Below are positions 3,640 to 47,810 of a stretch of DNA of 58,046 nucleotides, in pieces. The position numbers and the translations under genes are program-made. The notes beneath the pieces are model-generated. The model had not been told where the DNA came from. It saw only the letters and a list, made by a program, of their open reading frames with translations, and made no database searches. The stretch is from Ionaspis alba. Lineage: Eukaryota. The DNA lies in contig CAXUUL010000029.1 of NCBI GenBank assembly GCA_964255285.1, positions 1 to 58,046 on the forward strand, written 5' to 3'. Within the stretch, counting starts at the first letter, position 1. Every line of letters begins with the position of its first letter.

Positions 3640-5836
3640 CTACCTTAGTACAACGACTGATACACACACGGCATACGCCCCTCTCACTGCGCAAGTAACA
3701 CAAGTCTGGTCTACCTCAACAACAATCGCCGACAGACCCATATGCGAGCACCATGCCCGTGCAAAAATTTCCAAATCCGCATTCCCAAAGGTCTCAACCA
3801 CAAGTACCTCCTTCGGGTCCTCAACAAATGGCTCCGAATCCAGCGAACTCTTGTTAGCGGACGATAGATGGGTCAGCCCCAAATCGAGGGAGGCCCCCGC
3901 CCACTCATGGATGTCAAGTAGCTCATCCGGTCTGACGAAGTTGTGGGCGTAGTCGTAAAAGAGTGGGTGGGGCCCAGAGTGGCAAGGTGGAGCGGAGATA
4001 AAAGAGACATCGAAGCGGAGGCGGACCGGCCACGATTCACCATCTATGGCAAAGACGACTGCCGCGTTATAGGTGTCGGGCTCCTTCTCGGTATCGCCTT
4101 TCGTCCACGGGAGGAATGCCAGCTTCTCAATTCGAATATTGTCAGTATAGGATGTGCGGTTGGGTAGCGGGAGGACGTATTCCTTCACGCGGTAGTATTT
4201 ATAGGGAGGCCCCAGTGGAGCCGTTCGTTCAGATATAGTGCGGATGTCGTTGATGTGCATTCTGTGGCTAACATGTGTTTGGCGGATCCGGATGAGCTGG
4301 GTGCGAGCCAGGTCGGGAGTTGGCATGCAAGGTCCGATCCAGCCGTTGACCTCTTTCACACCTTTCGCTGCTCCTAAAATCTTGCCGACAATGCAATCTG
4401 ATGCCCAATAGGAATTGTCGAGATACTGAAATCCGGTATTCGGATACAGGTGGTCGAGGCGAGCCAGCTTTGTAGCAGCATCGTCGTCTACATCGATCAG
4501 ACACTGCATAAGGAGCCAGGGAGCAGAAGGTCCAGGGAGAATCAATCCCGAGGTCCAAGACAGAGAGTAAAAGCTCTTCAACTCGATTGGAGATCCTTCA
4601 TTGTCAGTATTCCCTAGGCATTCTTCGACCTGTCTAATATGTGGCCACTTGATCTCGGACGCGAAATCCTGGAGGAGGGCGATCTGACGAGACTTGTTGC
4701 GGAAGTTAAACTGGTAGGGAGGCGTATCATCATCTTCGTCATATATTTCGATCCAGACGTTCTCGAGCCAGCGTGACGCAAGAGCGATGGTCCAAGAGAC
4801 ACGTGGAGCAAAATTGATGAGAATCTCATGTTTTTCCTCGTTTCCTAGACTGCCGAGATTCAGACGCAAGTAAAGCTCGACGCTCAGGAGAAGTTGGTGA
4901 TAGAATAGAGATGCCAGCTCACTATCTTCTGTTGAGAGGTAGTCGGCGATAATCTGATTGGACCTTTGGCCAAAATCGATCCACTTTTCCGCTTGTAGAA
5001 CCGTAGCTAAGCTTTTGATCTCCCCGGCAAGGCCATCATATCTACCCGGATCGAATATAATGTATGAATAGAAGTAGTCATATCTTTCCAAGTCCTAACA
5101 CACCTCTTAGCTGATTGGTGCCATAAGAGCATGATTCCCGTCACTTACATCTGTCTCTAAGCCCTCTTGAATAACGCCTAATCGTCGAATGATCCACGAC
5201 GTATCCAAGTCTCGATCAGCGGCCCTTGTGTAATCACAAGGATTGAGTTTGAATGAGGCGGCAGAGGTTGAGACCCAGTGATTCAGTGAAATAGTTCCTG
5301 GAAGTCTGCCATACAGCTTTATCATGCTTGGCTGTTCAACAGTTTCGTCGGGTGCGGAATTGCTGACTTCCAGGCTAAGAGTCATGTTCGCCATCGCTGA
5401 GGAAAGCTCACGGGCCCCGTCTTCGTCTGATTCATCATTTCCAGCGCGAGCATAGAACCAATGTCTACCGGTGGTAGCGTGGCGGTTCCTGACAGTATAA
5501 CCTTCAAAACCTATGGCTCCCTTGCAGATATGCGCGAGAGCCTCATTATGGGAGAGCTTCGTATGTTTCGTGAGCCCTGAAGAGGGCCAAGTGGGTATCT
5601 CGGCAGGAAAGCAGTAACTGTTCGAGATAGCATGGAAAGACGGCAAACTTGGAGACGAGGACGGGGACGGTTTCGAAAGAATTTGTCTCGAAAGTGACGA
5701 AAGGGGAGAACGTCGCTGGCGACGATTCCTGGACTTGTGGTACCCTGGCTCCGTCACACACTCATGGGGATGCTGGTGAGATCAGAAGCTGTACGATCAC
5801 AGAAGGACAAGGATAGCTTACCTTTGAACTAGACAT
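3640..5836 (-). CDS. Fungal protein of unknown function, 3 exons
   Basis: Exons 5836-5822, 5772-5149 and 5094-3640 join in frame through GT-AG introns 5821-5773 and 5148-5095 (MSSSK|HPHEC...ETD|DLERY). Long globular-looking ORF ending with a CxxC (TCVTCAVR). No family recognised. Confidence 0.75.
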
Positions 5837-32732: not shown

Positions 32733-35700
32733 ATGGCTTCAAGAGCTCTGCCAACTCATGGGAGAGGACCGATCTACGCAAGAAACGAGGACTGGCGGAA
32801 TTGGACTGAAATTGGTGTGAGATTCTTTGGTTTCTCTGCCGATGTAACCACGAAAGACGTGTGGAAGATATTCAGTAAGGAGGGTGGAGTGAGCACAATT
32901 GAGCTATATCACAGCGAAGGGAAGTTGAGTGGCAACGGCAGAGTATGGTTCAGGTAAATCGCTCATCAGTGCCTGAAGTAGACCCCAAAAAGAATGAGCC
33001 TCTGACAATATTGCATAGACCTCCGCCAAAGAATGCATTCTGGCAAGCACCGTCATATCAGATTAAGAGTGAAGACCAGACTTCACCACTCAATCTTGAG
33101 GTGAGGCTTGAACCGCCTCGAAGATCGTTCCATTGCCAAAGCCCAGTCAACCCGAAAGTCAGCTACCCCGAGGTTATGGTAAGACAGTAGCATAGTCGTG
33201 TTTCCACGAACGCGAGCTAAAGATCTTCCTAGACGCTACATGCAGATTGCCTCGACTTTGGTCTCATGTATGACCCAACCACCATGATGGGCATGTACCG
33301 AACTCGACCTACGAAATCTACTGGCATCCGGTTTCAGCAAGACATGACCCATCGAGAGATTGAAGTCAGCTTTCCCATTGTGGTTCCCGATCCTAAGCCT
33401 GGAAACCCCAGTCGAATGGAGGATTATTGCTTCGTAATTCCCCTTGCCCAGCCCGTGGCAATGCATCAAATCGAAACTGGCCGACGCTGTGTTTTACTGG
33501 TTTCGCTGGAAGGTCCTCCAAATTTCTACCGGAAGTACGATGAGGGAAAAACACACCAGGAAGAGGCTACCTCTTGGAACCGTAGAGAGGCTCTATTTCG
33601 CCAGACGGACATTATGTTCGATCCCCGAATTCTCCGCACTGCTCCAGTGACATTGAAGAAGTCCAAGCCGATCATTGATATAGGTGAGGTTGCGACAACC
33701 GAGAACGAACGTTCAAAATCTGACAAGAACTATCTAGGACGGTGGACAACATACCATTTAGTCTTTGATATGACTAGAAACAATGCGAAGACTTACTCGA
33801 CCATTTGCGATGCACTTCGTGATTACAATATCGAGATACTCCCTCTGGAAGGTTTTAAGCTCATTACCGACCGCGAGCCTGCTGTCTGGGACTACATTGA
33901 TCGACCAGTTCCTCGTCGGAAGAAGAAAGCGAGCACAGCGTTGGATGACTTACAGGCTGACGACGCTCCGAGGCTCCCCTTCCCAGTGCGCTACCAGCTA
34001 GAAGTTTGCATCTCAGAAGGTTATCTGAACGAGCACAACATGACCAAGGAGTTTGTCGACAAGTTGATAGAGATGGAGCCTCTCAAGGCGCAGGATCTCC
34101 TGGAATATGTTGCAAACCAGAAGACTCGGATCTACAACCCAACGGACATCTTCAATTTCAAGATTGTCAAGGGCTCAGCCTCGAGACTTATGATACCTCA
34201 TTATTGCACCTATGTCCGGTCTGCAACCATAACACCTAGTACGATCTACTACAGTACCCCGACCGTGGAGACCTCGAACCGAGTCGTTCGACAGTACGCC
34301 GAATACGCCGACCGTTTTCTCAGAGTACGTTTTGCGGATGAGAAATTCCAGGTAAGATTATTTTTCGGATGCCATCATTGATTAGCGCTGATCCAATAAG
34401 GGGAGGCTCAATGCAACTCAGGGAGAATCGATGAATGAGATATATACGCGAGTTCACCGTGCTCTCATCAATGGGATCACAATAGGTGACCGACACTTCG
34501 AATTCCTCGCCTCTGGAAACTCTCAATTTCGAGAGCATGGTGCATACTTCTTTGCCCCTGTAGAGCACGTCAGAGTGACGGATATCAGAACCTGGATGGG
34601 TGATTTCCACGATATACAGGTCGTGGCACTCTACATTGCAAGACTCGGACAGTGCTTCTCGACGACTAGGGCCATTCATGGAGCGAGAGCCAGAATTGTT
34701 GAAGATCTTCAAGACAACGTTCTCACAGTGAGCCCAAAGCAGAGCTACAACTTCACGGATGGCGTTGGTAAGATATCCAAATTCCTAGCTCAGGTCGCAG
34801 CCTCCGAAGTTGGTCTGACAATGCTTAACGGGGAACCACCTTCTGTGTTTCAATTTCGTCTCGGTGGATGCAAAGGCGTTCTGACTGTATGGCCTGACGC
34901 AAGAATGAGAGATATCCACGTACGACCAAGCCAGTACAAATTTCCTTCGAAGTTCGAAGGCCTTGAGATTATCCGCTGGTCGCAATTCTCAATAGCGAAT
35001 CTCAACCGTCAGCTCATAATGATACTGTCTGCATTGCAGGTTCCCGACAGTGTATTCGTTGACATGCTAAAATTGCAGCTTTCGAATCTCGCACAAGCTA
35101 TGGGGGATGAGACGATGGCTCTCGGCCTGCTGCAGAAAGAAATTGATCCCAATCAGATGACACTCACCCTCGCTGGTATGATATTGGATGGATTTCAGAG
35201 GATGCGTGAACCATTCATGATCTCGTTGTTGCAGCTGTGGCGAGCATGGTCAATTAAGTATCTCAAAGAAAAGGCCAAGATTGCTGTGCACAAAGGCGCC
35301 ATTTTACTTGGATGCGTTGACGAGACTTTGACTCTTCAAGGTCATTTCGACAAGCTTCAAAAACTCAGGTCGCACGAATCGGAAGAGATGAGGTTGAAGT
35401 CCCTTCCAGAAATCTTTGTCCAGCTTTCCAAGGGTGCGAACGACAAGCCCGAGGTAATTACGGGTCCGATGGCTCTAGCCCGGAATCCATCATTGCATCC
35501 AGGTGACGTGCGAGTCGTTCGTGGTGTAGATGTGGCAGTACTACGGCATCTGAAAGATGTTGTAGTTCTGCCACAGACTGGAGACAGGGATATATCGAGT
35601 ATGTGTTCAGGAGGTGATCTCGACGGCGACGACTATGTCGTAATCTGGGACCGAGCGTTACTGCCACGTGAGTGGAACAACGATCCCATGGATTATAATG

Positions 35701-37469
35701 TGGAGAAGCCGCCGAAGCTAGGTCGTCCAATCACCACTCCCGATATTACGTCGTTCTTCGTTACCTATATGAAGAACAATTCCTTGCCAAGCATCGCTAC
35801 AGCTCATTTAGCCACTGCTGACTGGGAAAAGGAGGGTGCGAAGAGCCAGAAATGTCTTGAGCTGGCTACATTGCATTCGAAGGCCGTGGACTATGTCAAA
35901 ACTGGCGAAGCTGCGACGATTCCGCGGCAACTTCGACCACAAAAATGGCCTCACTACATGGAAAAGGACCACTTACGCGCCGAAAAGCGATATATTTCGA
36001 GAACGGTGCTGGGCCAACTGTACGACCAGGTTGAGAGGGTCGACTTTGTACCTGAATACGATGCTCCGTTCGACAAACGTATTCTGGACGCATATGAGTT
36101 GAGCGACAAATTGCTGGCTGATGCTGAGGAAGTAAAAGAGTTATATGACGCTTCGATGCACCGCATCATGGCTCAGCACGCAATCCATACTGAGTTCGAA
36201 GTGTGGTCTACGTTCGTTCTAAGCCACGCGAATCAGAGCAACGATTACAAATTCCACGAGGAAATGGGAAATATTGCCACTGTCTTGAAAGATCGATTCC
36301 GACTTCTTTGCTACGAAAAAGCTGGTGGAAGAGACTTCGAAAAGCTGGGACCGTTTGCCGCAGCCATGTACAAGGTCACAAGGAATCAAATGGCAAGGGC
36401 CTTGAAGGAGTGCCAGCGGGTCAGATTTGTGGGTGGCAGGGAAGAGAAGGTCGGGAGGAAGAGTGCCCAGACCATGCCGTTGATGAGTTTTCCATGGCTC
36501 TTCCAGGGCGTTCTGGGCAAGATCGCGAACGGTGAATTATCGGGACCTACGGCTACTAATTTAGATCATACTGTTACAATGCAAGGACATCAGAAGAAGA
36601 CTCCTTTCAAGAAGAAGCATATTGGACTGAGCGTCGAGGAAGAAGATGTCGTACAGACATCGGAAGGTATCACTCATCGTGGTGAGCTTTTGGAGCTCTT
36701 CCACGACAGCGGAGAGAAACTGGACCAGAAGAGAGACCCTAGCAGAACGTCAGACATGCCTGACTCGATCGCATATGAGAGACACAATCTTAAATATGAG
36801 GACCCGAGCAACCTCGATCAGGCGAAACCCTTCTCACGCGTCACCAATCCTGCGACGAGTCGAGCAACTTTGATGGCAAGGGGAGCTCCAATCGACGGCC
36901 ATATCATTGGTCCACAATCTGCTCTTACTCAGCACGGCGCCGAGGCTGGTCCGAAAAAGACACCCCAGTCCACAGCCGATCAAAAGGTAGACTCTGGGGG
37001 ACGAAAAACTGGTAATCTCATCGATTTCGACCTAGACACCGTCGTAGAGGATCTGAGCCATCTCACTTGTTCTACCGAGCTCCGACACACGCAAAAAGAC
37101 ACTTTATTCAATGATCTTCTGGGGCTGGAAACGGTAAACACGGTCAATGCTGATGGACGTGAACTGATGCATAGTCTCAGCTCCGGCGTCATCATCGAGA
37201 ATCCAATCGACGCTCCTGCTGAGATGGAAGTGATTGTGGCCGGAGGCGTGGAGGCCTTGACCAACAGCCAATCGGAGGGTATTCCCAAACCACGAAAAGA
37301 GTCTAGCATCCACCAAGAGAAATCCTCTGATCAAGGCTTAGAGGACTTTGTTGATGCAGATGACAAGGTTGTTGACATGAGCGAGGGCGAAGAGGACGAC
37401 ACGGAAATGGTCGACCTGAAAATAAGGCCATCGTTGCTAGAGAGGCTTGAGAACCTCGTTTTTGCCTGA
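32733..37469 (+). CDS. Eukaryotic RNA-dependent RNA polymerase (RNAi/meiotic silencing; SAD-1-like architecture)
   Basis: Catalytic CSGGDLDGDDY plus FTDGVGKIS, FQFRLGGCKGVL, ARNPSLHPGD, HSKAVDYVKTG, and an RRM-like N-terminus. Introns at 32954-33019, 33179-33232, 33684-33737, 34352-34400. The start codon is uncertain and may lie further upstream. Confidence 0.93.
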
Positions 37470-38760: not shown

Positions 38761-39195
38761 GATATTGAGACTCTACGTGATGATGAGAGCAGCAGTGATT
38801 AACAGTCCTGATCCATTTTAATCTGTAGATTATCAATCACCTGGAGACTTAAGGCATCACCACCTCTAGCTAGACGAATAATCGTAGATGAACTAGGAAG
38901 ATAGTACAAGCAATCCTCTCTCTTTCACAAGGTCATTGATCAACAAGGTTAAGATGTTGTTGTTGATTGATGATCATGGCCATTCCCATTGCGCGAGCTC
39001 TGTTGCCCTAGCAGGGGAGCGTCCACGCTAGCTCCACAAAATTAAGCGAATGTCGAAATAGAGACCGCTGACAGACAATATCGGCATCAGCTTCATCGTA
39101 ACGAACTATCTCAACGCGACACGGTAAGCAATCTTCAAACTCTTCATCGATACGCACTACTGATATTATCTTGCGATTAGACGCCCTAATTCACG

Positions 39196-39687
39196 ATGAG
39201 TAGGCTCTCCTACCCTTCGTCGATGACTTCACGACCATCCCATTTACCTTGTACTGACCTCTGGAACAGCGAAGGGTACCTCGTCTTTTGGCAAGCGCCA
39301 CAATAAGACGCACACTTTGTGCCGAAGATGCGGTCAGTCTTCTTTTGCGACGACAGATTCGGTCACGAAATTCGAGCAGCAAAGTATGGAGTCAGCTAAC
39401 AGAGGCGATTAGGTCGCCGTTCCCTTCACATCCAAAAGCACACTTGCTCCTCGTGTGGCTATCCCGCTGCTAAGATCCGGCAATGTATGATTCCGCACTA
39501 TTTCTCTAGTCCTCCAGAGGAGTCTACAGGTCTAATTGATAGTTCCAGACAACTGGGGGGAGAAGGCGAAGCGGAGAAAGACCACTGGCACTGGCAGAAT
39601 GCGCAGCATGAAACTTCTACCGAGAAAGTTCAAGAACGGGTTTCAGATTGGGACACCGAAGGGGGCAAGGGGGCCACCAACTGCTAG
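39196..39687 (+). CDS. RPL37: 60S ribosomal protein L37 (eL37), missed by the ORF track because of micro-exons
   Basis: Exons 39196-39199, 39270-39332, 39413-39484 and 39549-39687 give [64 protein letters not shown]... A probable 5'UTR intron lies at 39124-39180. Confidence 0.96.
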
Positions 39688-39908
39688 CTCGTGAGCGGCG
39701 TTTTGTTATGAAGAATTTGTGACGGGAGGCGCAAGCATGGCTAGAAACCTCACTTGCTAGCTATGCAACAGCCACAGAATGCAACAGATTCTTCCATTTG
39801 GCACAGACTCTCAACATTGCGAAAAGAAAGGTGAAGGGTGTCTGGCTGACTAGTCATCGGATGAGAAGCTTTGCCATCGAGGCTTCTACGTAGCCTGGGG
39901 TATCATTA

Positions 39909-41272
39909 TCATGCAAAACCCTTGAGCACCGCAGCCTCTTTTAATATCGATGAGCCAGCAGCTCCAATGACCGCTGAAGCTAGAGTCAGTGCAATCGGAT
40001 GAAAACATAAAGTCAGAGAACTCACTGTTGTGACTCAATGCTACAAATTTGAAATCAAATATCCGACTCTCATCTTCCCGCACTCTCCCTACACTAATCG
40101 TGTAGCCCTTCTGAAGGTCCCGATCCAGCGGTCGATCGTCTTCATCAAAGACAAAAATGGCATTCTCGGCGCGGACGGGCACTCCAACTTCTGTGCTTCA
40201 GAGACATATTCCCTCACAGCCTCCTCGGCCTCTCTCGCGCTAGGAGGTGGCCTCTTCTCAAATCGTGAAGAGACACGCTGTATGCCCGTCCAGGACCGCC
40301 AGACGATTACAAGCCGCAGAAATCTTCAGCTTACACTGGTTCTGGAAAGAAGTGGCAGCGCTGCTGACCGATCCCAAGATCTTCGGCACTTCGCTTTCAA
40401 GTTTGTCCTCCTCCCTTGATATGAAAGGAACCACATTGTCCCGGATATCCATGCTGCTGACTCCCGGATAACCAGCCCCAGAGACCGCTTGCTTAGTGAC
40501 GACAGACGCCTGATCCACAGGGCCGAATTTCGCCTGGATTGCGGCGAAAGGTATGACTATGCCGATGACAGCGCAATTTGAGCTGCAAACCAAGAACCCT
40601 TTTTTTGCCCATAGAACCCACGTTGGTAAGGTATGACATCTAGATGGGTGAGGTTGACCGTAGGTACGACGAGGGGTACATGAATATTTCTGTGGTGGTT
40701 TTTGGCGTTGGAGAAACCGGGTAGATTGGCTTTCAGGAATTCGATCTCTAGCATCTCCTTTGTCCGACCGACAAGCCTTCTGCTGCAATTGTTTCATATA
40801 ATACCAATGTCACCAGCAACATCACTATCAAGGCCCGAGAAAACAAGATCACAGTCTCGGAANNNNNNNNNNNNNNNNNNNNNNNNNNNNNNNNNNNNNN
40901 NNNNNNNNNNNNNNNNNNNNNNNNNNNNNNNNNNNNNNNNNNNNNNNNNNNNNNNNNNNNNNGAAAACAAGATCACAGTCTCGGAAGTTCTCTACTTTAC
41001 ACTCCTTCACCACCAACTCCCAAAGCTCCTTCGACACGGGGACGTTCTGCTTCCACCGAACCACATGTTTGTATTTCTTGCCAGCCGATCTCGAGGAAGC
41101 TTCTATGGCATGTAACTTGAAGTGTGGATGGTGGGCGAGTAGGAGAAATCGTTGTCCGACGCTGCCTCTGTAGCCCAAGACAGCTACGAGGTTGCAATTA
41201 GTACGCGGGTACTCCGATCATGCCGAAGTACCTACCGCACTGCTTTGGAGTAAACTCTCGAGCAATTGCAAT
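39909..41272 (-). pseudogene. HOM2: Aspartate-semialdehyde dehydrogenase, disabled copy
   Basis: Recognisable segments ([80 protein letters not shown]) are split across frames. Frameshifts near 40600, 40272 and 40170; no in-frame ATG (ATT at 41272-41270). Confidence 0.88.
40863..40962. other. 100-N scaffold gap with a duplicated 24-bp flank (probably a negative gap); other gaps at 9704-9803 and 43424-43523
   Basis: GAAAACAAGATCACAGTCTCGGAA occurs at both 40839-40862 and 40963-40986. Confidence 0.9.
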
Positions 41273-41493
41273 GGATCTTGTGGTCGGTGAAAACTGTTGG
41301 TAGAGAGGGAGGAAGATGCGATATCGGAAGGCTACATTTTTAGGGTTTCAAGGGAGGACCGAAATAAAGGGAAGCTCGCTTGAAGCTCGTATCTGCTTCG
41401 TCATGCCTTCTTTTGCAGAAGATCATTATCTACGAAAGAGTGCTCGTTCGATCTCCGTCCCCACTCGTAGGATAATGTCTTGAGCCAGATGAA

Positions 41494-43419
41494 CTATGTA
41501 TAACTTGTAGGTGAGCTGTTGGACATACTATGATTAGACAGCTTGTTCTTTATCTGAGGCTTCGGTAACTCCACAGTCGACGCTGCTGCTGCTTTGACCG
41601 AGCCATGAGGCTTCTCGAAATGTACCGCTTCAAAGATCTTACCAGGATTCATTAACCAGTACGGATCCAGCGATCTTTTAATGCTCCTCATCACGTCAAC
41701 GGTATCAACGCCAAGTTCATGCAGCAGCGATTCCTTTTTCCCAAGCCCGATGCCATGTTCGCCCTACTTCAGATCAGCGATGGGGGGCTTATCAGCGGTC
41801 GATTCCATGCACTAACGGTACAAGTGCCATCCATCTCGAGGGCCCTTTCCACCATATTGTGCACACAGCTCTTCACAGCCTCTGTTTCTTCTGGATTAGT
41901 ATTATCATAAAGTATACTTTCATGGAAATTGCCGTCTCCAATGTGTCCCAGGATACTTGCAAACAAGCCCAGATCATCCATCTCCTTCTTCGAAATCTCG
42001 ATGATATCCGCTAGTCGAGAGAGGGGCACGGCAACATCTGTGGACCAAACTTCATTCCCTTTCTGCCTCAAGGACAGCATACTCCATAACGCTTCCTTGC
42101 GTGCCGACCACAGAGTCTTCGCCGATTTTGCATCCTTGGCAAACTCGAAATCACCGCCTCCATGAGCCTTTGCAATGGCTTTGACCGACTCGATGTTGTC
42201 TTTCACTCCGGACGTTGTGCCTGAGAATTTGAGGAAGAGCGTGGGGGCTTCTTTCCAGGTCTGGCCCGTTGCCCCGGCACGGTTCACTACGCTCATCTGA
42301 ACGTCGTCCATGATCTCAATAGCCTGCACGGGAACCCCTGCCCGCATGACTTTAGCTGCAGCAGCAGCGGCATCCCGGATCGACGCGAACGTCACAACCC
42401 CCACGGCCTCCGCCTGTGGGATGACAGCCAGTTTTAACGTGATCTCGGTCACAATACCGAGGGTGCCTTCCGACCCGACAAACAGCCCGGTGAGATTATA
42501 CCCGGCACTTGATTTTCGAGGTCTCTTTCTTGTCTTTACGATTGTACCATCAGCCAATACCACAGTCAGATTGACAACCCACTCTTTCATTGTTCCATAA
42601 CGGACCGCGTTTGTCCCACTGCAGCTTGTTCCAACCATGCCTCCGATCTTTGCGCTTGGTGCAGGGTCTACTGGAAAGAAAAGCCCGGAAGATTTGAGCT
42701 CCTCATTGAGTGTCATCCATTGCATACTTGGTTGGACTACAACGTCCATGTCCTCTTCATGGAAGGCTACTATCCGATCCATGTAGGCAAAATCGATCGA
42801 AACACCGCCGTAAGGGGCGGAGAAGTTTCCCTCGAGGGAAGTGCCTCCCGAGTAAGGTACCATGGGCAAACGGTATCTGTGGCATGTACGGGCAATCTCG
42901 GAGACCTCAGCGGTAGATTTGGGATAAACGACAATGACCGGAAGCTGTTCAATATTGATCGATGACCACTCCGAATAGCCATGAGCTTTGAGATCTTCGT
43001 CGTCAGTGCTGATTGAATCTTCGCCCAGCGATTGCCGGAGCTCAATCACTGCCTTGCAAGATGCTGTGAGTAATCCTGCTTGCATCAAGTTCGTCTGGAC
43101 CAACCTTCTCGAAATCTTCGACACTCCCATACTGTGGAGATTTGTCCACCTTCCGAAGCCGGTCAAAGTGGGAGCTCGCATCTGTGATGCCGTACGCATA
43201 TGCTAGCGAGCTTGCAAAGGATGCAAAGAGTAGAGCACGTCCCGTCGACCAGAACGACCGATATGGGAACGGTCCATCGTGGTTCGTCTGAAACCCAGCG
43301 CTGAGACCTCTTGACTGGATTGGCGAAAGCCGAGCGGGATAGAGCGACTTCGGTGGCGATGGCAATCGTACGACATGCCTGAGAGTGGATCTAAGACTAA
43401 GTATGGGGAGTCTGGGCAT
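41494..43419 (-). CDS. DLD1: Mitochondrial D-lactate dehydrogenase (cytochrome), FAD-linked oxidase family
   Basis: Arg/Leu/Ser-rich presequence; PYSGGTSLEG, FFPVDP..SAKIGGM, SGTNAVRYGTM, SSAGYNLTGLFVGSEGTLG, GHIGDGNFH, GTCT|GEHGIG, MNPGKIF. Introns at 43101-43053 and 41816-41764. Confidence 0.93.
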
Positions 43420-44892
43420 GATTNNNNNNNNNNNNNNNNNNNNNNNNNNNNNNNNNNNNNNNNNNNNNNNNNNNNNNNNNNNNNNNNNNNNNNNNNNNNN
43501 NNNNNNNNNNNNNNNNNNNNNNNGGACGCTGCATTGAAAATTTCCATTTACTGTTTGGCACACCTCACTTGGTCTTGTAAGGATTTGGGGGCCAATGTTA
43601 CGCAGCTGTATCAGTGACTAATTGGCCTGCCAAATCCCTTTTCGGGTTGTGGATTCATCCACTATTCACCGCCTGCACGGTTCCTGCTTTCTTTCAACGT
43701 GGAATTTCCGGCTGTGCTTCAAGCCATTACTAAAGCTTTCCCCTCGTCCAAATAAGTCGATGTTGTGCGTCTGACATGTGGCATACTCTAGTTAACGTGT
43801 ACCATGGTTCGGCCGCTTCCTTCCAAGGCCCATTCCTATCAAGCCCTTACCTGGTTTGCTTCTAGCAGCAGCAAGTTTCTGATTCGCAATGATCTGAGGT
43901 TTGGGCTTGACGTTTGTTCCGTCAGCGCTCGGAAAACTGATCACATTGTCTGGCGGTGAGGAATTCAGGCTGCCAGGAAGGTGTGGGGACCAAGGGCGGC
44001 ATGAAAGGAAGGCTGGCATTCCCACAAACTGGTCACGGGCCCTGGCTCATAATGGGCCAGAAGAACTAACCGATGAGTGCGCCGACCCTGCCGTATTTTG
44101 TCATTTCTGGAGCCTGTTAGGGTGCGGAGCATAAGCCATTGGACACATCCTAAAAAATCCTCAATCCCTCACATCACTATCGACCATCTACGACTGGTAA
44201 CACAATGTAGATCATAACGACGAATATTGGAAAGTTATCGTTCTTGTCATGTTATTTTGAAATTGCTCGCGATGTACTGATGATCAGAATAGATTGATCA
44301 GGTGCGGAGGAGGTTGCCTATCCGAAACAAAAAACCTCGATATGAGAAAGGTGTTCAATGACTTGTGCAAGATACTCTTATTTCCGGAGTATTGAGACAG
44401 ACCGAGTGGAAGGTGATGGAGGGTTTCAAAGTAGCAACAGTTGGAGTAATTGTAGGGTATACTTCAGTCCAATACACTTTCATTGGTGGTACGTGAATTA
44501 GAGATCAAACAGAACTTTGAAAATAACCATAATTGGGAGCATGCTTGTTGACAGAAGCAAACATCCGTACATCGTCCATGATAGCCCAAATGATGTGCCC
44601 ATGGCCATCGATCACGTTACTGGTTGGATGAAAACTCTGGTCCGCTCGATTCAGATCACGAAGGCCTTGCCCAGAGTACTTCTACATTACATGTCACAAG
44701 TAATCACAAAGACGACAGTGAAGAGCAAAAGGCTGAGGGGAGATTTCCAGGTTCGAGTAAAACTGCTTATAGTTGGCGCCAGGATAGAAGAAAAACATCA
44801 TCGGTGATCTAACCCCTGTCATCTCGAAAAACACTTTGGTCACGACATGATCACTGATAGTCAACGACCCTTAATAGATCCACGGGAGGTCC

Positions 44893-46223: not shown

Positions 46224-47216
46224 ATGGGCCGTGGGATCAAGAAGCATCAAAAACGCTTGAGTGCTCCGTCTCATTGGTTGCTTGATAAATTGAGCGGAGC
46301 CTACGCCCCTCATCCTTCTCCTGGTCCTCATAAGCTGCGCGATTGTCTGCCGTTGATCATTTTTCTCAGGAACCGGTTGGTCAAAGAACTGAATGAAACC
46401 CAAATTTATGTGTGAAGGTACTGACACATAAGTCTTTACAGTCTCAAGTATGCTCTCAACTCTCGAGAGACCAAGGCCATCGTCATGCAACGTCTCATCA
46501 AGGTCGATGGCAAAGTCCGCACCGACGCAACCTACCCAGCTGGTTTCATGGATGTGATTTCGATTGAGAAGACCGGCGAGAATTTTCGTCTGGTCTACGA
46601 TACGAAAGGCCGCTTCACCATTCATCGAATCACTGCCGAAGAGTCGGAATACAAGCTGGGAAAGGTCAAAAGAGTCCAATTGGGCAAGGGCGGGATCCCA
46701 TTCTTGGTTACGCATGATGCACGAACGTAAGCTCGCTGCACTCTTTCAGTCGTTGGATCAAGTTTTGGCTGTCTCCATTGAAGCTGATGGTTTTGGGAAT
46801 TACCAGGATCCGCTACCCCGACCCAGCCATCAAGGTCAATGACACAGTGAAGATCGATCTCTCCACGGGAAAAATCGCCGACTTCATCAAGTTCGACACT
46901 GGGGTTATTGCAATGGTCACTGGTGGACGTAATATGGGTCGTGTTGGTGTTGTCACACATAGGGAACGTCATGACGGTGGCTTCAACATTGTGCATATCA
47001 AGGACGCCATCGATAACTCCTTCGCCACACGTGAGAGCAATGTGTTTGTCATTGGCAGCGAGAAGCCATGGATCAGTCTGCCCAAGGGCAAGGGCGTTCA
47101 GGTATGCATTAGTTGGAACCTCTCCATCTTAGGCGACCTGTTCCTGACTTGTATCACAGTTGACGATCGCCGAAGAGAGAGACCGCCGCAGGGCTTACGC
47201 TATCTCTGGTCACTAA
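46224..47216 (+). CDS. RPS4: 40S ribosomal protein S4 (eS4)
   Basis: [23 protein letters not shown]...[10 protein letters not shown]...RLKYAL...THDARTIRYPDP...[19 protein letters not shown]. Introns at 46376-46441, 46727-46806, 47102-47159. Confidence 0.97.
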
Positions 47217-47810
47217 AGGGAAGAAGAACCCGCATACTGTGGATGCTATTGGGCTCAGTGGCTAGGGCGATAGAGGTAGAAGAATGCAGATGGAATGATA
47301 GGTGAAGGAATTTTGTGCTAGCAAATCCATAACCATCTTATCTTGTGTGGCTGCTTCTCGTTCTTTCTTGCTGGAGTATCTCGTAGCTCGATGGATTTGA
47401 AAGTATTGACGAACCTGCGCAAGCAGTGAAATCTACTCGACGCTGTCGGCTCCATCTGGAAGTAGCGGAAAGACATGAAGTAGAGCTTTGTCTACGAGCC
47501 ACTAAATCGTTCCCTGGATTATGGCGCTGTACAGATAAATGCAGCCAAGAACCTTTGGGCCTCGCGCTGATGGAATGTCCACTCTCCGTAGGGCTGATCT
47601 ATGAACGTACGCTTCGCCAAAAATTTTGAAGGCTTGACGCAACTCTCATGTGAAGATGTAATGGACATATTTCTCACGTCGACCCACGCAACACCTGATC
47701 AAACCAATATTTTCGTCCCTTTTATCATTTCGTCGATGCCAAATACATAAGAACATGCTTCTCTATGCACAGAACCCTTATCCTGCTACTGTCCTGCTGG
47801 ATACTCGTTC

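Follow-up and report, generated by a model that had tools for sequence, protein, structure and literature searches.

Decay of the native HOM2 gene in a lichen fungus and its probable displacement by a HOM2 from another fungus

HOM2 and its neighbours in the window

The window, i.e. the whole stretch of fungal DNA that was analysed, is 58,046 nt long and corresponds to contig C29 of an 18.3-Mb assembly of 1282 contigs. It carries the native A-type HOM2, the gene of aspartate-semialdehyde dehydrogenase, in four exons (Table 1). According to part of the text of PMC8241756, Hom2 supplies the aspartate semialdehyde step in the synthesis of Thr, Met and Ile. The neighbours DLD1, RPS4 and RPL37 are read as intact, as the initial annotation had described for the flanking genes. 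The name RPS4 comes from the translation and the Pfam domains of the fused gene model P0092, and the region that we take to be RPL37 was named from its translation. A gene of an RNA-dependent RNA polymerase (PF05183) with open frames lies near the HOM2 locus at 33233–37469, and VTC4-like, GDT1, TRF-like and mitochondrial-carrier genes are located elsewhere in the window. A second N gap is present at about 43424–43523, just upstream of the DLD1 start.

Table 1. Features of the HOM2 locus and its neighbours (window coordinates)
Feature	Position	Strand	Basis or remark
RPL37 (presumed), intact as read across frames	39200..39700 (approximate)	+	name assumed from translation
Native A-type HOM2 pseudogene (aspartate-semialdehyde dehydrogenase), 4 exons	39909..41272	-	frameshift-aware alignment
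One-codon deletion (~39938) and N-to-K change, ILNAEAA to ILKEAA	39934..39942	-	alignment
Intron 3, 52 nt, GT-AG	39974..40025	-	not in the C760 copy
9-nt in-frame deletion (3 codons, ~40128); conserved QPR gone, DRPLDR left	40124..40132	-	alignment
Frameshift 3, -1 (~40166)	40164..40168	-	alignment
Frameshift 2, -2 (~40272)	40270..40274	-	alignment
Premature TAG after frameshift 1, 160 codons from 41272	40557..40559	-	translation
Frameshift 1, -1, in a homopolymer (A7), 5' of the catalytic Cys codon	40600..40607	-	alignment
Intron 2, 57 nt, GT-AG	40748..40804	-	not in the C760 copy
Scaffolding artefact: 100 N (40863-40962) and duplicated 24-nt flank	40839..40962	.	X1 contig joins 40838 to 40963
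One-codon in-frame deletion (~41145), just past the GxxG motif region	41143..41147	-	alignment
Intron 1, 52 nt, GT..AG	41184..41235	-	position as in the first intron of the C760 copy
Start codon lost: ATT GCA ATT opposite the aligned Met (ATT at 41272 and 41266)	41264..41272	-	alignment
DLD1-type FAD-linked oxidase, intact neighbour, open frames	41494..43419 (start approximate)	-	
RPS4, intact ancestral neighbour	46224..47220 (end approximate)	+	83-92% identical pieces adjoin HOM2 in other fungal loci

For the lesion calls, the spliced locus was aligned in a frameshift-aware manner with the intact Hom2 proteins of Pleopsidium, Icmadophila and Bachmanniomyces. With the breaks read as X, it is 73–77% identical to these three lichen-fungal proteins over 363 columns. 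The initial annotation had noted the lack of an in-frame ATG at exon 1, three frameshifts, the substitutions GYRG, VTKQ, DIRDN and ISREED, and the shortened motifs DRPLDR and ILKEAA. All of these are present in the alignment. The list had missed the one-codon deletion near the GxxG motif region and the N gap with its duplicated flank. The lesions had been placed mostly outside homopolymers, and this holds for two of the three frameshifts, the exception being frameshift 1. None of the first six ATGs after splicing lies in the reading frame, and the frame from 41272 stops before the catalytic Cys motif is reached. Conservation is 95% or higher at 160 columns of 110 intact A-type Hom2 proteins, and the locus deviates at 17 of these columns (12 substitutions, four deletions and one frameshift); the control rows show a median of 0 deviations at the same columns, and five rows reach 12–20. 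At 129 universally conserved columns, 13 deviations are found at this locus and one in the intact copy described below. HOM2 at 41272–39909 is a real pseudogene. Recoding by a near-cognate start and programmed frameshifts was rejected, because three shifts would be needed, and the deletions and the substitutions at conserved columns would remain.

The reading of these lesions as assembly or sequencing errors, to which the N gap inside HOM2 and the frameshift in the A7 run might lend themselves, deserves hardly any credence, since a separately assembled 128.5x contig of the public run X1 spans 38800–40838 and 40963–42400 with 0 other letters and 0 gaps, contigs of run X2 (about 3x) are identical to the window at the lesion-bearing stretches 40417–40662 and 39687–39986, and the 12 substitutions fall at conserved columns. 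The initial annotation had argued in the same direction. X1 is possibly the run behind the window, so that its agreement excludes assembly error without representing a second individual. As a HOM2 lesion, the 100-N gap was rejected; it is an artefact, because the X1 contig joins its two sides with an open frame, and an X2 contig also joins across it. A 2.7x X2 contig, otherwise identical, lacks 9 nt at 41017 in the pseudogene, and may represent a second, still-decaying allele or an error.

In a metagenome scan, 73 HOM2 loci were collected, and 16 of them are of the B type described below (12 from 11 JAABU-prefixed assemblies and four from JGI contigs). Nine of the 57 non-B loci have DLD1 next to HOM2, and RPS4 is likewise a neighbour in many of them; many of the 57 end before any neighbour would be seen. 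None of the 16 B loci has DLD1 there. Fused gene models agree with this arrangement: DLD1 and HOM2 domains are joined in the Oleoguttula model, and RPS4 and HOM2 in the Candelina model. According to these comparisons, the pseudogene sits at the ancestral HOM2–RPS4–DLD1 locus with its three introns kept, and is neither a processed nor a relocated copy. The order RPL37–HOM2–DLD1, which the initial annotation had named for comparison with relatives, is not the ancestral arrangement.

The intact HOM2 on contig C760

A Hom2 family search of the full assembly, as proposed in the initial annotation, gave two matches, the window locus and contig C760. A recent duplicate of the native gene was rejected as a candidate; the DNA search of the assembly matched only the window locus itself. 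The copy on C760 (HOM2-B, C760:4189-2957) is intact and encodes 366 aa, with two GT-AG introns, a GATG loop and an intact DRPQPRLD motif. Its exons carry PF01118 (NAD-binding) and PF02774 (dimerisation), and P0356 and P0362, which are closely related to it, score above the TIGR00978 cut-off. A unitary pseudogene is one without a functional homologue elsewhere, and here an intact HOM2 is found on C760. A functional duplicate or a replacement elsewhere was one of the two possibilities offered in the initial annotation. The replacement is there; the C760 copy is not a duplicate but a distant and probably acquired xenolog.

The C760 copy and the pseudogene are 57% identical, and one-third of the intron positions of the pseudogene are common to both. 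Both belong to the fungal Hom2 family (TIGR00978, asd_EA); the nearest structure of the pseudogene is PDB 5jw6, and those of the C760 copy are PDB 6c85 and 4zhs. In trees of 83 and 36 rows, made by a quick method with SH-aLRT support only, a split with 100% support separates the two copies. On one side, the pseudogene is placed with Icmadophila, Hypocenomyce and other Lecanoromycetes at a moderate support of 89–92, and on the other, the C760 copy falls in a shallow clade that is sister to the Onygenales enzymes. A common clade of the two is rejected (p-AU 2e-78), and the HOM2 tree conflicts with that of the organisms. In the openly accessible main literature that was searched, there was no report of two deeply split fungal HOM2 types or of HOM2 transfer or mobility; supplementary cargo tables on Starships may list it. 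The GC3 of HOM2-B is 0.48, that of host genes is 0.47–0.56 and that of SGL is 0.76. Composition is thus uninformative, since GC3 fails to separate HOM2-B from host genes. Upstream of HOM2-B (L004:~4270-4285), C760, L011, L034 and L017 have retained a TCACGTG motif, which presumably resembles the yeast Cbf1 site.

C760 is a separate contig of 8.3 kb, and it ends inside the putatively transferred block. No other HAS1 than the one on C760 was found in the assembly, the next DEAD-box match being 46% identical. The best named matches to this HAS1 are those of Lasallia, Lambiella, Xylographa and Icmadophila. In a quick tree with SH-aLRT support only, it groups with Ostropomycetidae (88, moderate), which agrees with the placement of the pseudogene, and lies apart from Chaetothyriales and Onygenales. 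The assembly contains 13 proteasome and 10 chaperonin loci, which is no surplus over the 14 and 10 loci that we assume to be expected. Two TRP5-like (tryptophan-synthase) loci, G000:C91 (L096) and G000:C386 (L098), are 70–78% alike as protein and 68–73% alike as DNA over longer pieces. They may reflect an ancient paralogue, another xenolog or contamination, and some foreign DNA in the assembly is therefore possible. From these sequence comparisons, we infer that C760 is this organism's DNA.

If C760 came from another fungus, the present fungus would be a true Thr/Met/Ile auxotroph without HOM2, HOM6 and THR4, fed by its partner or host. This alternative is unlikely. In the incomplete assembly, HOM6 was not found with three queries and THR4 was not found with five queries, though the proteasome and chaperonin loci are nearly all present on the numbers assumed above; the source sample is a mixed community, and the two TRP5-like loci are also in keeping with this alternative. 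However, open frames are present for HOM3 (480 aa), THR1 and a MET2-type gene, C760 bears the only HAS1, which is Lecanoromycete-like, and the decay clocks on the two contigs, given below, match. AFG1, which is outside the pathway, is also not found, indicating that the assembly misses genes. By our count, about nine in ten of the expected single-copy genes tested were found, and at that rate the chance of missing two of five pathway genes is about 8%. As the absence of HOM6 and THR4 is unexplained, auxotrophy stays a minor rival. The auxotrophy branch of the initial annotation is thus unsupported by the open pathway genes and the intact HOM2 on C760, yet these two genes of the pathway were not found.

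The B type in other fungi and the block around HOM2-B

Named carriers of the B type are Cudoniella, Hyphodiscus and Stipitochalara; Rhinocladiella and three Fonsecaea; Geoglossum, Glutinoglossum and Trichoglossum; and Brigantiaea and Flavoplaca, and their proteins are 87–94% identical to the C760 copy. We take these carriers to be Leotiomycetes, Chaetothyriales, Geoglossomycetes and two Lecanoromycetes, and with these presumed assignments, the B clade appears to occur patchily across four fungal classes. Protein identity alone is weak evidence for transfer, because A-type enzymes from different classes are up to 86% identical. Divergent HOM2 proteins from several Trichoderma species and Bathelium (P0174, P0184, P0152) are located at the base of the B side. 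The HOM2 proteins of Circinaria, Lignoscripta and Xylographa (P0179, P0190, P0225; 370 aa) group with Dothideomycetes or outside the 99%-supported set of other Lecanoromycetes.

At the DNA level, C760:1-4377 aligns at 92% to the metagenome loci L011, L013 and L015, and the match stops before HAS1, which is present in none of the 73 loci of the scan. The difference from these three loci is even, 3–8% per 400-nt bin, coding or non-coding. Between C760 and L011, the introns of HOM2-B match at 123 of 129 positions, and the dS of HOM2-B is 0.14. In the case of the neighbouring SGL of L011, the best match in this genome is 64–67% identical with a dS of 1.42, and the upstream 1001-aa ORF of L011 matches this genome only in patches of 30–65%. 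For L019, the dS of HOM2-B is 0.42, and the neighbour NFX1 is saturated. These dS controls comprise one or two genes per host, with orthology assumed from best matches. AFG1, as a host control for L011, was not found in the assembly of this genome, and the class III aminotransferase of L017 was rejected as a control, having no orthologue in this genome (best 36%). No further copies of the C760 block were found in this genome. In L017/L018:1-20549, the B copy lies in very AT-rich DNA (GC 0.19–0.35) with dispersed repeats, 4 kb from this aminotransferase.

The A and B types might also be ancient vertical paralogues, both long kept, of which A was lost recently here (reciprocal loss with no transfer). 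Such a history would fit the depth of the B lineage, with its sister position to Onygenales and the basal Bathelium and Trichoderma copies, and the presence of B in each of the three genera of Geoglossomycetes that came up; nor do the data reject monophyly of the B copies of the three Lecanoromycetes (p-AU 0.43). It is nevertheless quite unlikely, given non-coding DNA as similar as the 92% above, and a dS of 0.14–0.42 against 1.4 or saturation in neighbouring host genes. The B loci have no surroundings in common, the 12 JAABU loci sitting in three unrelated ones, and among the matches listed, two named Lecanoromycetes have B and many have A.

The block carries two passenger ORFs, exonuclease-like and zinc-finger-like, with open frames in L011 (416 and 423 aa) and disrupted ones in C760. 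The pair, with C2H2-like repeats and an RNase T-like exonuclease, is located at L011:11567-14332 and L004:1-2530. The label 'C2H2 zinc finger' is based on repeats read by eye, and Pfam named neither ORF. From the Atlas came RNase T-type exonuclease clusters (0.90; 144–147 features in common), a result used as a lead only, and the exonuclease is described as DEDDh-like. Whole or partial, the exonuclease accompanies HOM2-B in L012, L015, L017, L020, L023 and L024. Along the C760 branch, 13 synonymous and 36 non-synonymous changes and four new stops accumulated in the exonuclease; its pS of 0.046 against a pN of 0.042 indicates neutral decay. On the same branch, HOM2-B has 15–19 synonymous and 6–11 non-synonymous changes, depending on which of three outgroups is used (pS 0.056–0.073, pN 0.007–0.014). 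The contrast in selection between HOM2-B and the exonuclease gives Fisher p values of 2e-5 to 9e-4. These counts show that HOM2-B is under purifying selection on the branch of this genome. The unconstrained change is about 0.034 per non-synonymous site (95% interval 0.017–0.059) in the native HOM2 and 0.042 (0.030–0.057) in the exonuclease passenger. Because these intervals are wide and overlapping, the order of events is consistent with displacement, though unproven.

As for the vehicle, no DUF3435 captain was found on C760 or in the 11 larger ORFs scanned of L011, L017 and L019. The only DUF3435 match in the assembly is a broken 52-codon piece (G000:C638:295-450). No element ends or transposase were found, and the upstream homology of the block ends at differing places in L011, L017, L019 and L016. 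On these findings, HOM2-B cannot be classed as Starship cargo.

Probable displacement of the native HOM2

We regard a fungus-to-fungus xenologous displacement of the core gene HOM2 as the probable explanation for what the analysis shows: the native gene is broken, an intact second copy exists, the two fall in separate clades, the DNA of the block and that of host genes diverge to discordant degrees, and selection acts on HOM2-B but not on its passenger. A lichen-fungal ancestor (Lecanoromycetes, near Ostropomycetidae) would have taken up a block of DNA of another fungus, 4.4 kb or more in length, which would now adjoin HAS1 on C760. The block would have brought the B-type HOM2 with its own promoter and introns, together with the C2H2 zinc-finger ORF and the DEDDh-like exonuclease ORF. 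With two aspartate-semialdehyde dehydrogenases, one would be redundant. The incoming HOM2 would have been kept under purifying selection and would now make aspartate semialdehyde for Thr, Met and Ile. The passenger would have decayed at once and the native HOM2 at HOM2–RPS4–DLD1 would have followed, both neutrally. In this reading, the acquisition would have preceded the native loss, and the B copy would be expressed and active, for which the purifying selection on it gives indirect support.

A variant accepts C760 as native and the transfer as real, and supposes that HOM6 and THR4 are truly lost, so that HOM3 and HOM2-B would feed another product, e.g. diaminobutyrate. It takes up the two genes that were not found and the class III aminotransferase located 4 kb from the B copy in L017/L018. 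However, that neighbour is present in only one of the three JAABU contexts, the best match to it in this genome reaches only 36%, and THR1 and MET2 would lack their substrate yet have open frames. We consider this variant very improbable.

Documented fungus-to-fungus transfer concerns mostly accessory cargo. A closely comparable case is xenolog gene displacement of the FSY1 fructose transporter among ascomycetes, as described in part of the text of PMC3688497. As in the HOM2 case, a homologue moved from fungus to fungus into new sites with different introns, and the resident was lost; the FSY1 displacement was repeated in one family. Unlike HOM2, FSY1 is an accessory transporter, and its resident is simply absent, whereas HOM2 is a core enzyme with a datable pseudogene at the ancestral locus. 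The Tangerine Starship of Xanthoria has cargo in common with Chaetothyriales (PMC13486527, in part). Its high-identity genes common to lichen-forming Lecanoromycetes and Chaetothyriales resemble the HOM2-B case, and make it a plausible kind of vehicle. In contrast, its cargo is an NLR and a methyltransferase, the main text of that paper contains neither 'aspartate' nor 'HOM2', and C760, which ends inside the block, shows no captain or element ends. What is unusual here is that the gene apparently replaced belongs to core metabolism, and that the native fossil can be seen together with its replacement and an internal clock. Because the intact xenolog, the neutrally decaying passenger and the native fossil are all present, the steps can be dated relative to one another.

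More tentatively, the B-type HOM2 may be a core-metabolism gene with a mobile history: it would have been transferred several times between Leotiomycetes, Chaetothyriales, Geoglossomycetes and lichen-forming Lecanoromycetes, together with the zinc-finger/exonuclease partner, and would have been kept, or have displaced the resident, by an advantage (e.g. in regulation or inhibitor sensitivity), not by drift. This wider proposal is possible but doubtful. Inhibitor resistance as the motive was considered and is unsupported, as one naphthoquinone inhibits the Aspergillus and Blastomyces enzymes alike, with Ki of 0.88–2.5 µM on both in the part of PMC8241756 concerned. The HOM2 of Circinaria, Lignoscripta and Xylographa is a possible second displacement, as suggested by its position in the trees. 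If the mobile-gene proposal is true, HOM2 would be a fungal housekeeping gene particularly prone to replacement, and these three genera would be the second case.

From a broken core gene alone, dependence of a lichen fungus on its symbiont cannot be concluded. HOM2 is unsafe as a single-copy phylogenetic marker. The Onygenales-type and the Aspergillus-type enzymes, each under study as a target for antifungals, represent two forms separated by a deep split.
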